From the IMG/VR virus record IMGVR_UViG_2721755660_000001: a DNA stretch of 64,000 nt; one strand, given 5' to 3'. A program made the position numbers. Position 1 is the first letter of the stretch. Each line of letters begins with the position of its first letter. Origin of the DNA: a virus. Taxonomy: Duplodnaviria > Heunggongvirae > Uroviricota > Caudoviricetes. Positions 1 to 48,000 of this stretch are shown here, piece by piece.

Positions 1-3000
1 ATGGCACTGAATATTCCATTCAGAAATGCGTACTATCGTTTTGCATCCAGTTACTCATTTCTCTTTTTTATTTCCTGGTCGCTGTGGTGGTCGTTATACG
101 CTATTTGGCTGAAAGGACATCTAGGGTTGACAGGGACGGAATTAGGTACACTTTATTCGGTCAACCAGTTTACCAGCATTCTATTTATGATGTTCTACGG
201 CATCGTTCAGGATAAACTCGGTCTGAAGAAACCGCTCATCTGGTGTATGAGTTTCATCCTGGTCTTGACCGGACCGTTTATGATTTACGTTTATGAACCG
301 TTACTGCAAAGCAATTTTTCTGTAGGTCTAATTCTGGGGGCGCTATTTTTTGGCTTGGGGTATCTGGCGGGATGCGGTTTGCTTGATAGCTTCACCGAAA
401 AAATGGCGCGAAATTTTCATTTCGAATATGGAACAGCGCGCGCCTGGGGATCTTTTGGCTATGCTATTGGCGCGTTCTTTGCCGGCATATTTTTTAGTAT
501 CAGTCCCCATATCAACTTCTGGTTGGTCTCGCTATTTGGCGCTGTATTTATGATGATCAACATGCGTTTTAAAGATAAGGATCACCAGTGCGTAGCGGCA
601 GATGCGGGAGGGGTAAAAAAAGAGGATTTTATCGCAGTTTTCAAGGATCGAAACTTCTGGGTTTTCGTCATATTTATTGTGGGGACGTGGTCTTTCTATA
701 ACATTTTTGATCAACAACTTTTTCCTGTCTTTTATTCAGGTTTATTCGAATCACACGATGTAGGAACGCGCCTGTATGGTTATCTCAACTCATTCCAGGT
801 GGTACTCGAAGCGCTGTGCATGGCGATTATTCCTTTCTTTGTGAATCGGGTAGGGCCAAAAAATGCATTACTTATCGGAGTTGTGATTATGGCGTTGCGT
901 ATCCTTTCCTGCGCGCTGTTCGTTAACCCCTGGATTATTTCATTAGTGAAGTTGTTACATGCCATTGAGGTTCCACTTTGTGTCATATCCGTCTTCAAAT
1001 ACAGCGTGGCAAACTTTGATAAGCGCCTGTCGTCGACGATCTTTCTGATTGGTTTTCAAATTGCCAGTTCGCTTGGGATTGTGCTGCTTTCAACGCCGAC
1101 TGGGATACTCTTTGACCACGCAGGCTACCAGACAGTTTTCTTCGCAATTTCGGGTATTGTCTGCCTGATGTTGCTATTTGGCATTTTCTTCTTGAGTAAA
1201 AAACGCGAGCAAATAGTTATGGAAACGCCTGTACCTTCAGCAATATAGACGTAAACTTTTTCCGGTTGTTGTCGATAGCTCTATATCCCTCAACCGGAAA
1301 ATAATAATAGTAAAATGCTTAGCCCTGCTAATAATCGCCTAATCCAAACGCCTCATTCATGTTCTGGTACAGTCGCTCAAATGTACTTCAGATGCGCGGT
1401 TCGCTGATTTCCAGGACATTGTCGTCATTCAGTGACCTGTCCCGTGTATCACGGTCCTGCGAATTCATCAAGGAATGCATTGCGGAGTGAAGTATCGAGT
1501 CACGCCATATTTCGCTATCAGGATTCTGTGTGATGGTTACATCGCCCGGCCCAGGGCTGTTTAGTCATCAGCGCTTTCTGACAGTGCTGAGATTTCAACC
1601 TGTTGCAGTAAAAATGAGTAGATATAAGGCAAGTGTGCTGCCAAACCCATCTTTTACGGGGTGAAGGTAGATTTCGTTTGAAGGGTATCTGGTGTCCCCT
1701 GCAGACATCATACAGGCAATGTAACCACAGGGGATATAAAAGAATTTGTCGATGTGAGGAAATTTGTGCCCACTGTTGTGCCCGCAAAGGGAAATCACGA
1801 TGCTTTTCTTTGAGGGGAGAGATGACTGAATTTCCAGTGTTGGTAGTCGGCATACATCCACCTGGATGATCGCCCGTACTTGATTGGCTTGGGAAGTTTG
1901 CCGGCCTTGATTTGGTCATAGAAGTATTTGGCCGTGTAGCCAGCATCCTCGATCATGAACTTCATGTCAATGAGTGAGTCATCGCGTAGTTCTCGCATAG
2001 CTTATCCTCCTAAGCCAATGTCTTATACAGTTGCGGCCCATCCACAGTGGCAGGCCGTAGTTTGTTTTCTTGATGCACCTAGTAGCTTCCCGAGTCCCAT
2101 TTGCACCAGTACTTCGGATGTTCGCTATCTGGTTCGATTAGGCTCTCAACGTATCCATGTATGCCGCCGGTCTTTAGCTGGACTATTGCGCCCACAGAAT
2201 ACTTAGCCATTGCACACCTGCCGGTTCGCGTAGAAATGAGATGAGAGCAGCCAGCGCGGTTAGTGCTGCGATGCTCCACATGATGGGATTCGAGTGCATG
2301 GGTAACTCCCAAAAAGAAGCCGCCCGTAGGCGGCAATAACATCAAGGGATGTGAGGCGGTGCATCGCACCCAATAGCCAGCTCATAACTGGCTATCAGTT
2401 GCGCCTTTAGTCTTCCTGTACCAGAACAGTGTCATCTGGGACCTTAATAGTAAGGACAACGCTATACCCCTTATCGTGAGTGCTGAACGATGTTTCCCAT
2501 TGTGGGATTGGCACATCTTCATCAACCTGGCAGATACCGATAGACCAACAGCCGATGTCGGTGTATGTGGCGATTACTTGCATTTCACCTTCAGCTGATT
2601 TCAGGTGATAGATGCCCGGATGATTGAAGCAACTAATCTCCTCTCGAATCGCTCCTTCGCACTCGAACAGGTCATCACTTGCTCCATAAAAACGTAATTC
2701 CTTCATAATCTCTCCTCATGCCGCGCGCTGGGTTCAGCGAGTTTTATCCAATAAAAAACCCCGCCATGGCGAGGTTAGTTGTAGTGCACTGCTTTCAGTT
2801 TAGTGGGGTAGGGTTGTACTTAAATATCGCTTCTACTATCGCGTTATCTGAAGGTTCTTCACCATGCACTCCAATCAAAAACCCCCCTTTTTCTGGATAA
2901 ACAGTGCTAACCCGGAATGAAACCTGCTCTGCACCATAGCTAACTCTATTGGTGCCCGTAGGCGATAGTACTGGTTGACTGTTGAAGAAGTAGGATTCTT

Positions 3001-45000: not shown

Positions 45001-48000
45001 ATTATGATTACATAGAGCATGGTTTTGATTGCCAGGTAATCAACCACGGCAGGAATGCCAAGGTAGTAAGAAACCTTTTCTCGCACAGCGATGTGTATTA
45101 AGTAGACTCCGTATGTAAAAGGAGCAAGGAAAAGAATAATCTTCGAAGCAGGCTTGTCATTATCGAAATGAGTGCCGGTGACTATTAAAGTCAACATACT
45201 AGAGAAGAAGAACATGCTGACGCTAAAATCATAGGGCTTGGTATCAAACCCAAGGCTGTTGACGCTTAGCCATGTGAATGTGACTTGCATTGCAAGCGAG
45301 GCCGCAAACAACTTCCACGTGGTTGATCTCTTGATTTTAACGCGCTGAAGAAGCCCTCCCGCGATGAAGTAGCCTAGCCAAAGATAAATCTGAGGTATTG
45401 GGATAATGTTATGATACCCCGTTATTACTTTCCCCAGTTGATGCTCATACTGAGGCCAACAACAAATGACAGCTATAAATATTAAGCTATGGGCAGTTTT
45501 ATCCAATGGAATTGCATCAGTTATTACTTTAATGGCAGGGTAAACAATGTAAATGCCAAGCAGAGAATAAACAAACCATAAGTGAACAGATATGCCTGTT
45601 GGTGATTTGTATAGCAACTCGAAAAATCCACCTATTCCTTTATTGTAGAACGCATCATTATGCTGGAAATAATAGTTTATGAAAGCGTAAATGAAGAATG
45701 GAACAAGCAATGTTGCAAGTCTTTTTCTATAACCAGACCAAAGATTTTCCGTTTTACGGTTAAGCAGGAAATATCCGCTCATTATAAAGAATATAGGAAG
45801 TCCGGCTCTGACGATCGCTTGAGTAAACATCGATTGATAGACAATTAGATCAGACTGTCCGGTTTTAACCATCGTCGCATAGTCCGGGGTAACATGAATT
45901 GCTATCACTAACAGGCAGCAAATTATCCGTAAAAAATCTGCAGATACATTTCTCATGGGGATTCCATAAAATTTTTTCCTACATGATAGAGCAACCAACC
46001 CCGGTTGTGAATGGCATGAGAAATTCCATAAGCATCAGTCATAAGCATTGAGGCAGTGATCACTACTTGATCAGCAATGCCGCAATGAACTACTGTATGC
46101 ATATACAGTAATCACGGAGTGCATATCATGGGCTTTCCATCACCGGCGGCAGACTTCACAGAAAGGCGCATATCGCTCGATGCGATGCTCGTAAGCCATC
46201 CATCAGCTACGTACTACATGCGCGCAGCAGACACTCACTATCGCGCTGGTATCATGTCTGGTGCGCTTCTTCTCATCGACTCGGTATTGAAGCCATGCGA
46301 TGGTTCGCTTCTTGTTTGTGCTACTGAGGGGGAATTCAGGATAAAGCGGTACCGGACTCATCCGCGACCACACCTGGAGAATCTTGCTGATGGGAGATGG
46401 GAGGAGTTGCCGATAGACAGGGAGAACACGTCGGATGCGCTGGCGGTGTTTGGGGTGATCAAGTACATCATCAATGATGCGCGATCGGGGGAGTTTGACG
46501 ACTGCCCGGTGATGTAGCTGGAACTACTCCACCTTTTCATCAAGCCAGTCTGCCCACCACTGCATCATCTCACGACGGGTATCGAGATAGGCGGCATGGT
46601 TGTATACCGATCTGGTGCCGCCGCTAACGTGTGCCAGCTGCATTTCGATAGCATCACTGTTCCAGTGCTTCTCATTGAGCACGGTACTGAACTGATGTCG
46701 GAATCCGTGGCCGCTGGTCTGCCCTTCATAGCCAATGTTGCGGATCAGCCCAAGTACTGAGTTCTCGCTGATTGGCTTCTTTCTGTCATTTCGGCCGGGG
46801 AAACAAAGGTCGTACTGACCGGTGACATGCTTCAGAAACTTAAATAGCTCCTCAACCTGCCCGGACATCGGCACGACGTGCATCTTGCGGCCCTTCATCA
46901 CTGATGGATCAACGCTGATTAGCCTGTTTTCAAAGTCGATTCCTGACCATGCCAGCGAGCGGAGTTCGACTGTGCGCATGGCTGTATAGTGCAGCACCTG
47001 CGCCGCTATCTTAATAACAATCCAGCCGCCATAGGCATTCATTGCCCGCTGGAACTCGTGTATGCGGTGCAGGGGAAGGAAAGGGTAGTTCTCTTTCCGG
47101 TAGCCACGCATAGCGCCAGCAAGGTCTCTTGATGGGTTGTACTTAGCCCTGCCAGTTACGATCGCATAACTGAATACTTCACCACACCTACGCCTCGCCT
47201 TATCAGCGCGTTCCATTGCGCCCCTGTCTTCGAAAAGCCTGATCACCTTCAGCAGAACCATTGGTTCGACATCTTCCATCTTCAGGTGCCCAATAACTGG
47301 CAATATGTCATCCGTGAACATGCTCATCATCTCGTCAGCATATCCCTTAGACCACACCTTTGATTTGTGCGCATGCCATTCACGGAAGATATCCCCAAAA
47401 GAATCGGCGCTCTCTTCTTTCTCTTTCTTCTTTATTGCCTTCTTCTGTTCAGCCGGGTCAATGCCGGTCAGCAATTTCATCTTCGCTTCAGCCTGCCGGG
47501 CCCGGGCTTCGGTAAGAGAAATTTCAGGATAGGGTCCGATAACTAGAGTCTTTTCTTTTCTATCAAAACGGTAGCGCAGGCGCCATACCTTTTTACCCGA
47601 CGGAGGGACAAAGAGGAAAAGACCTCCAGCATTAGCCAGGCGATATGATTTTTCCGCAGGCTTGGCTGCGTCGATCTGCTTTACCGTAAGCATGTGGGCA
47701 TAAATCCATGGGTATTTTTTGATATGCCCGCAATATGCCCGCAAAAGTTTGGTGGAGTCAATACATGTCGGGTAACGTCAGGTAATTTGAAAATGGATGA
47801 TATTGTTGCTTTGATGGGGTTGTTGGTAACGTCAGGAAGTGTGAGGTAATGAGAATGTGGTGTCCCCTGCAGGAATCGAACCTGCAATTAGCCCTTAGGA
47901 GGGGCTCGTTATATCCATTTAACTAAGAGGACGTTGTTGCGTATTGATTTTGGTTGTTCACCATATGACTGATAATACCGTCTTTATGGTTTTAAAATCA

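Follow-up and report, generated by a model that had tools for sequence, protein, structure and literature searches.

How an integrase and an excisionase encoded at opposite ends of a prophage come to serve a single attachment (att) site, and from which promoter the integrase gene is read in the lysogen, are the questions raised by IMG/VR virus record IMGVR_UViG_2721755660_000001 (Caudoviricetes), a stretch of 64,000 nucleotides (nt) referred to here in its entirety as the window. The window is Escherichia coli chromosome, its first gene being the sucrose permease gene cscB (1-1248, plus strand), the counterpart of which in relatives is annotated as an oligosaccharide transporter of the major facilitator superfamily. 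It carries a 46.2-kb prophage in which the integrase gene (int) and the excisionase gene (xis) lie 44.5 kb apart, one at either end. Very probably, these genes and the sites beside them make up the site-specific recombination module of a lambdoid prophage that is complete and resides in the 3'-terminal part of the tRNA gene argW, a module of the KplE1 (CPS-53)/HK620/Sf6 type with the order xis - attP - int.

Prophage boundaries and the argW target site

At each boundary of the prophage stands a copy of a 15-nt direct repeat, TGGTGTCCCCTGCAG, the two copies (1690-1704 and 47858-47872) being exact; the limits of 1690 and 47872 proposed in an initial annotation of this DNA coincide with their outer edges. 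The attL core (47858-47872, minus strand) is formed by the final 15 nt of argW, a tRNA-Arg(CCT) gene (47858-47932, minus strand) detected by both ARAGORN and the Rfam tRNA model, which is intact, co-oriented with int, and the single tRNA gene in the window. The attR core (1690-1704, minus strand) is a 15-nt copy of the argW 3' end, reading CTGCAGGGGACACCA on the minus strand, and marks the edge of the host DNA that lies below 1690 on the cscB side. Crossover within this 15-nt identity keeps the tRNA gene intact and distributes xis and the P arm to attR, and the P' arm and int to attL. An insertion into the argW 3' end that duplicates the core CTGCAGGGGACACCA(T) is as expected of a KplE1/HK620/Sf6-type module, the KplE1 core being given in PMC2951348. 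Besides argW, no RNA family was found at either att region by Rfam at gathering thresholds. On the phage side, the attR core continues into an extension (1705-1720, minus strand) that resembles the argW T arm at 11 of 16 bases and contains GATGTC. This hexamer may represent a core-type half-site and, together with the 7-nt TGCAGGG and the GACACC that follow in this reading, would constitute an imperfect inverted repeat.

An empty-site query, obtained by joining host flanks 1300-1704 and 47873-48250, was searched in complete E. coli genomes. The joined flanks are uninterrupted in 38 of these, with identity of up to 100%, including O103:H2 12009 and O111:H8 strains, while both prophage ends are found together in five (GB089, O22:H8 154, OkiPb01715, M10, and LR778153). 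Two of the five carriers have a different left host flank, and in these the homology begins exactly at window position 1690. Given the empty site in 38 genomes and the homology break at 1690, the prophage ends are taken to be real rather than the product of chance. A terminator-like hairpin (1628-1642, minus strand) is also present in host DNA approximately 50 nt beyond attR, and it would stand directly after argW in the empty site; integration thus parts argW from what is probably its own terminator.

The integrase and excisionase genes

Both genes were located where the initial annotation had placed them, xis just inside attR and int just inside attL. The int gene (46524-47693, minus strand) encodes a heterobivalent tyrosine integrase of 389 amino acids (aa), recognised from Pfam matches and from homology to IntS. 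The IntS likeness claimed for this large open reading frame (ORF) extends over the full length of the protein, which is 62% identical to K-12 IntS from end to end (385-391 aa) and contains the Pfam domains Arm-DNA-bind_3, Phage_int_M, and Phage_integrase, corresponding to the arm-binding, central, and catalytic domains, respectively; in NCBIfam, the same sub-threshold match to PRK09692 was returned for both proteins. The N-terminal 100 aa share 87% identity with the integrase of phage Emek. A TTG start at 47744, which yields a mechanically called ORF of 406 aa, was discarded and the ATG at 47693 (MLTVKQI...) preferred, the latter start being shared with IntS, with all homologues, and with the annotation produced by the Prokaryotic Genome Annotation Pipeline (PGAP). 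The start codon is 164 nt from the attL core.

At the opposite end, xis (1795-1998, minus strand) is preceded by a strong Shine-Dalgarno sequence, GGAGG, and its stop codon lies 90 nt from the attR core. Its 67-aa product is a TorI-like recombination directionality factor (RDF). Homology to the TorI family, on which the proposed role of this small ORF had been made to depend, was found: the protein matched the TorI structure PDB 1Z4H with E=3.7e-12 (PDB sequence search, phmmer alignment), is 45% identical to K-12 TorI by BLASTP and 61% identical to the orf74 product of Emek, and falls in PHROG 66, an excisionase family. Tyr28 and Arg45 of TorI matter for DNA binding and excision (PMC3509656). 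Tyr28 is invariant in a five-sequence MAFFT alignment (A1), whereas Arg45 pairs with Arg43 of the window protein only in the phmmer alignment to 1Z4H; alignment A1 shifts this segment, such that the column is not invariant and the flanking Arg46 and Trp47 are invariant instead. By its sequence, the protein is assigned to the TorI/HkaC family of winged-helix excisionases.

The early-left operon (gam, recT, exo, and further genes) runs toward attR and ends in xis, a small helix-turn-helix gene beside attR. The region directly upstream of xis (2079-2334, minus strand) comprises a terminator-like hairpin followed by a conserved small ORF, both located between the early-left genes and xis. The hairpin, GCCGCCTACGGGCGGC, is strong and GC-rich, is followed by a T run (2334-2319, minus strand), and was scored as intrinsic-terminator-like in a terminator scan. 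The small ORF 3' of it (approximately 2312-2079, minus strand) shares 58% aa identity with HK639_30, which is likewise preceded by an annotated terminator, and matches PHROG 1690, despite not being annotated by PGAP in the GB089 copy. This arrangement suggests that xis expression would require antiterminated early-left transcription.

The circular form

The phage junction was reconstructed by joining 47500-47857 to 1690-2100. In this form, xis, attP, and int follow one another on one strand, the order that characterises the KplE1/HK620/Sf6 type. The joined ends align in one piece (87% coverage, approximately 71% identity) with the virion genomes of the Salmonella phages Emek, g341c, S.Inf 5-2, and NM-3, in which the xis homologue is found approximately 270 nt after the int gene on the same strand. 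IMG/VR was further scanned with an alignment of five excisionases, whereby 418 relatives were detected and 80 loci returned. Among the 61 loci with at least 105 nt of downstream sequence, the core follows the xis stop codon by 91-94 nt in all except one; 12 contigs are in the attP form, with the int start approximately 270 nt after the xis stop, and 19 predicted prophage contigs terminate at xis. The earlier proposal that attP would sit between xis and int on the same strand is upheld by the common minus-strand orientation of the two genes, by the collinearity of the joined ends with free phages, and by these 12 contigs.

Anatomy of the attachment sites

The reconstructed attP of the window was aligned with those of Emek, g341c, and Erwinia phage phiEt88, and with the reconstructed KplE1 attP of K-12. 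The layout is common to the five, with deviations of no more than one or two bases, and the comparison with the KplE1/CPS-53 att region, which had been suggested as a check, returned the same layout with matching offsets. Two direct arm-type repeats are situated on the P arm (1765-1785, minus strand), namely GCGGGCACA at 1785-1777 and GTGGGCACA at 1773-1765, at offsets of -82 and -70, equal to those of the repeats in Emek, g341c, and phiEt88, and they align with the GGGTAAAA repeats on the P arm of KplE1. On the P' arm (47723-47742, minus strand), GCGGGCATA occurs twice in tandem, at 47742-47734 and 47731-47723 (offsets +129 and +140), aligned with the KplE1 GGGTAAAA/GGATAAAA repeats. A further, inverted repeat (47694-47702, plus strand; TATGCCCAC on the minus strand) abuts the int ATG at offset +169; it is also present at +168/+169 in Emek and g341c, and its K-12 counterpart consists of the inverted TTTTACCC copies. 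Altogether, the arm-type repeat GYGGGCAYA occurs twice in attR and three times in attL, at the offsets of the mapped IntS arm sites of KplE1.

The arm-type sites of KplE1 have been reported to share a TAAA motif, and its site P'1 to overlap the -10 hexamer of the int promoter (PMC2951348); by position, we would assign the P' tandem repeat that overlaps the predicted -10 hexamer of the window to site P'1. Exact matches to TGYGGGCAYA number four in the 64-kb window, all inside the two att arms, and the inverted repeat beside the int ATG is among them. When mismatches were allowed, one in the case of TGYGGGCAYA, the counts of the repeat motifs over the whole window did not exceed the shuffled expectation, and the evidence is therefore their position and cross-phage conservation, not their counts.

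The excisionase is presumed to bind between the core and the -35 hexamer of the predicted int promoter (47772-47850, minus strand), where ATTAC is found at 47850-47846, GTTAC at 47830-47826, ATTAC at 47786-47782, and GTTAC at 47776-47772. These RTTAC 5-mers occupy offsets +21, +41, +85, and +95, as compared with +21, +41, +84, and +94 for the first four GTTCG-type 5-mers of K-12, the fifth of which stands at +104; the 20/10/10 spacing of the K-12 5-mers agrees with the five TorI sites, in two blocks, described for KplE1 (PMC2951348). The -35 hexamer follows at +110, reading TTGACT in the window and TTGACA in K-12. A 12-nt repeat reported by a repeat tool in two copies at attL, CCTGACGTTACC, covers the +41 and +95 sites, and the longest repeat at attL, with two copies reading GGTAACGTCAGG on the plus strand, occupies the positions of the KplE1 TorI sites. 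By this placement, CCTGACGTTACC is likelier to be bound by the excisionase than to be of the arm type. The direct repeats near the prophage ends had initially been taken for arm-type binding sites, a view that stands for GYGGGCAYA, present at both ends, and probably does not for the longest attL repeat, GGTAACGTCAGG, which sits where TorI binds in KplE1.

Co-variation of the excisionase and its sites

The presumed excisionase sites were compared across 14 distinct sequences in the attP form (the window and 13 others). The 5-mer between the core and the -35 hexamer changes together with excisionase residues 20-27, in helix 2 just before the DNA-contacting Tyr. In K-12, Emek, and g341c, the helix-2 motif G(F/M)GKTF(I/M)Y is accompanied by the 5-mers GTTCG, GTTCT, or GATCG; in the window, phiEt88, and five IMG/VR contigs, G(Y/F)T(A/S)KYFY is accompanied by RTTACC or GTAACC; and in two other IMG/VR contigs, GF(T/S)DRYFY is accompanied by AGAAC. 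The arm repeat GYGGGCAYA is present in every one of the 14 sequences except K-12, and it follows the N-terminal domain of the integrase, for which the identity of the window protein is 87% to Emek, 61% to phiEt88, and 53% to K-12. This pattern supports the site assignments made above from sequence.

It is tentatively proposed that the excisionase and its binding sites were re-specified together at least three times on a fixed argW attP layout, and that the integrase arm sites changed independently, a proposal for which we judge the chances to be close to evenly balanced, with doubt slightly ahead. The data set suggests modular swapping of excisionase specificity among phages that share one tRNA target, which, if true, would offer a handy natural system for the study of excisionase-DNA recognition. 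Should the classes fail to cross-react, phages competing for argW would be unable to excise one another, and the excisionase of one phage would be unable to shut off the int promoter of another. No description of the three excisionase/site classes was found in the literature searched, and this is the only element of the present analysis not found published.

A predicted int promoter within attL

A sigma-70-like promoter, TTGACT-18-CATATT, was detected between the core and the int ATG by a consensus promoter scan (47732-47761, minus strand; -35 TTGACT at 47761-47756, 18-nt spacer, -10 CATATT at 47737-47732). Column by column, it lines up with the PintS promoter of KplE1, which has been mapped by experiment, and TTGAC(T/A) is found at offset +109/+110 in every attP compared, K-12 included. 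The predicted -10 hexamer overlaps the first P' arm repeat, in the same position as in KplE1, where the int transcription start was mapped by primer extension and PintS was found to be repressed by Int and TorI (PMC2951348). The claim that int must use its own promoter in the lysogen gains a concrete candidate in this promoter, predicted inside attL and aligned with PintS. By homology with KplE1, it is well supported that int would have its own promoter, which is probably autoregulated.

In the mechanism that we propose, int would be transcribed in the lysogen from the sigma-70 promoter inside attL, as positional homology with KplE1 suggests. The -10 hexamer would overlap an arm-type site and the -35 hexamer abut the block of excisionase sites; since the promoter hexamers overlap or abut the sites of Int and of the excisionase, both proteins probably repress int. 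Judging from the anatomy of the locus, xis, as the final gene of the early-left operon and standing behind an intrinsic terminator, would be produced only after induction and antitermination. On attL, the excisionase may then occupy four or five RTTAC sites situated between the core and the promoter, and thereby steer Int, through its GYGGGCAYA arm sites (two in P and three in P'), to excision. Excision would bring back the order xis - attP - int, the genes sharing one strand and having no predicted terminator between them.

Counter-evidence and alternative readings

Several points weigh against this account. The regulation is carried over from homologues at only 62% (Int) and 45% (RDF) identity. 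A search for the consensus of integration host factor, WATCAANNNNTTR, with at most one mismatch found no site in either arm. The clear RDF-type 5-mers number four, as against five in KplE1, the position at +105 being degenerate. CATATT makes a weak -10 hexamer, the conservation of which is inseparable from that of the overlapping arm site. The 67-aa ORF has neither a Pfam nor an NCBIfam match; K-12 TorI likewise has no NCBIfam match, and the missing NCBIfam match is consequently no argument against homology, which was decided by the PDB sequence search and BLASTP. Lastly, no terminator-like site was predicted between argW and int, and some read-through from the tRNA promoter could therefore add to int expression.

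A stronger version of this last point holds that int in the lysogen is expressed mainly by read-through from the argW promoter and not from a dedicated attL promoter: the two genes are co-oriented and 164 nt apart with no predicted terminator-like site between them, and the hairpin next to argW at an empty site has been moved by integration to 1642-1628, beyond attR. This is nonetheless regarded as unlikely, given that a -35/-10 pair stands exactly at the position of the KplE1 promoter, where the int start was mapped by primer extension (PMC2951348), that the TTGACT hexamer (TTGACA in K-12) recurs in all attP compared, and that tRNA 3' processing would cut off the read-through RNA. It might also be supposed that the module is the fossil of a cryptic prophage, in which the split xis and int have no present function, as the in-frame stop in the MT-A70 methyltransferase gene (4018-4677) and the rarity of the module (five of 5,426 complete E. 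coli genomes) could suggest. Such decay is improbable where int and xis are full length, where the arm sites, RDF-type sites, and promoter are intact at conserved offsets, and where the prophage retains its head, tail, lysis, Q, replication, and repressor genes; the same prophage moreover occurs in different host backgrounds beside empty-site relatives, which points to recent integrations.

The identity of the 67-aa protein has been considered separately, as TorI was originally identified through its inhibition of TorR (PMC3509656) and PHROG 66, in which the protein falls in the absence of a Pfam match, is named 'excisionase and transcriptional regulator'. That it serves solely to regulate transcription or to counter a response regulator (as an AlpA-like protein or a TorR inhibitor), and not as the excisionase, is nevertheless very improbable: in 60 of 61 loci the gene keeps a constant distance of 91-94 nt from the att core, excision depends both in vitro and in vivo on the homologous TorI and HkaC (PMC2951348, PMC3509656), Tyr28 (MAFFT) and Arg45 (phmmer against 1Z4H) are conserved, and the helix-2 motif changes together with the attL repeats. 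That the two ends derive from different elements through a tandem or composite insertion, such that xis and int are not partners, is hardly credible, even though argW is a hot spot with a second integrase across the tRNA gene and the prophage body is mosaic. When joined, the ends give one collinear attP, to which free phage genomes align in a single piece, the same arm-type repeat is found at both, they co-occur in the same five genomes, and one continuous lambdoid gene order runs between them; on the strength of the collinear attP, the co-occurrence, and the continuous gene order, this reading was rejected.

Prophage body and cargo

The prophage body (1705-47857; 46.2 kb) is a complete mosaic lambdoid genome of siphovirus type, as seen from the PGAP annotation of the near-identical GB089 prophage, which lists terminase, portal, capsid, tape measure, TipJ, lysis, Q, and replication genes and a cI-like repressor. 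It is partly similar to the Enterobacter phages ENT1 and CobraSix (the nearest, with approximately 40% coverage), HK639, and phi80. The immediate neighbour of int is a divergent gene for a UmuD/HumD-like S24 peptidase (46119-46517, plus strand). Between int and the tail genes lies a stretch of cargo (43002-46517) with two acyltransferase-family genes (43002-43871 and 44892-45998, minus strand), and between these, a gene for a secreted protein with an Ig-like domain (43871-44998). The acyltransferase and Ig-like cargo is probably an O-antigen modification module, at the position held by gtrABS in KplE1. Elsewhere in the prophage, the gene for the MT-A70 family DNA methyltransferase (4018-4677, minus strand) is interrupted by an in-frame stop at 4429-4431 and is annotated as a pseudogene in the GB089 copy, and isrJ was matched above the Rfam gathering score at 19632-19705 (plus strand).

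A second element across argW

The 5' side of argW is abutted by a second lambdoid element, extending from 48053 to at least approximately 59000. Its integrase gene (48053-49297, plus strand) reads away from the tRNA gene, and its 3' end is overlapped by a convergent gene for a 60-aa, excisionase-like HTH_17 protein (49281-49463, minus strand); argW is thereby sandwiched between two integrase genes belonging to two different layouts. The junction of argW with the second element recurs in the VT2phi_272 record and in the genomes of O103:H2 12009 and O111:H8 strains. Among the 5,426 complete E. coli genomes, not one has both the present prophage and the island across argW: homology ends at 47932 in the five that carry the prophage, and the IntS-type site is empty in the 38 that carry the island. 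Within the second element, C4 antisense RNA (58718-58805) and isrK (58830-58905) were matched above the Rfam gathering score, both on the minus strand, and a perfect 9-bp tandem repeat in eight copies (50283-50354) gives rise to a (QPV)n stretch within a DUF1627-like ORF (50140-50547, minus strand).

Comparison with known systems

The split arrangement of xis and int, together with a dedicated and autoregulated int promoter, has already been published for KplE1, HK620, Sf6, CUS-3, and Kapi1 (PMC2951348, PMC3509656, PMC8787464); in Kapi1, Sf6, HK620, and KplE1, attP lies between int and xis, and the two genes stand at either end of the prophage (PMC8787464). As the arrangement and its consequence have been in print since 2007-2010 for KplE1 (Panis et al. 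2007 and 2010) and were restated for Kapi1 in 2022, they carry little weight here as a discovery. The module of the window is a diverged, uncharacterised member of this published arrangement, borne by a siphovirus-type lambdoid genome. What is added is a base-precise definition of the prophage boundaries and a site map for a diverged variant of the module on a complete lambdoid phage, together with a correction of the repeat roles, GYGGGCAYA being of the arm type and RTTAC of the excisionase type.

With KplE1/CPS-53, the module shares the target in the argW 3' end, the core CTGCAGGGGACACCA, and, with int and xis sharing a strand, the order argW, attL, int ... xis, attR; in K-12, argW and intS come first and torI last, followed by a 15-nt argW fragment (pawZ). 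The offsets of the arm repeats, the presumed RDF block, and the -35 hexamer are the same, as is the placement in attL of the promoter, predicted for the window, with its -10 hexamer over an arm site, and the distance from core to int start is similar (164 nt here, 161 nt in KplE1). The two differ in that IntS and TorI are only 62% and 45% identical to their counterparts here, in the arm repeat (GGGTAAAA as against GYGGGCAYA), in the RDF-type 5-mer (GTTCG/GATCG/GTCCG as against RTTAC), and in the length of the exact repeat (16 nt as against 15 nt). Furthermore, KplE1 is a 10-kb remnant, whereas the present prophage, repressor included, amounts to a complete lambdoid genome of 46 kb.

HK620, Sf6, CUS-3, and Kapi1 also integrate at argW, have attP between int and xis, and carry O-antigen-modifying cargo beside int. 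They are P22-like podoviruses, in contrast with the siphovirus-type body of the window and its tape-measure and TipJ genes, and their excisionases are identical or near-identical to TorI (PMC3509656), unlike the one described here. The closest sequenced modules from free phages are those of the Lederbergvirus members Emek (vB_SemP_Emek) and g341c, whose int genes are approximately 78% identical to that of the window at the DNA level (87% in the N-terminal domain of the protein), whose xis product is 61% identical, and whose arm repeats, spacing, and promoter hexamers are identical. Their 5-mers, however, are of the KplE1 class (GTTCG/GTTCT/GATCG), their RDF helix-2 motif reads GMGKTFIY instead of GYTAKYFY, and their xis homologues are annotated merely as hypothetical proteins.

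A module of the lambda type, with the order xis-int-attP, was also considered and set aside, since xis and int are 44.5 kb apart and the gene beside int encodes an S24 peptidase. The lambda system has in common with the present one a heterobivalent tyrosine integrase acting on arm- and core-type sites, a small winged-helix excisionase, and a xis gene that ends a pL-type early-left operon. In lambda, however, both genes lie at one end of the prophage and are co-transcribed from pL upon induction, and the excisionase sites are on the P arm, in attR, whereas in the argW prophage the presumed excisionase sites are on the int-proximal arm, in attL, alongside the predicted int promoter.

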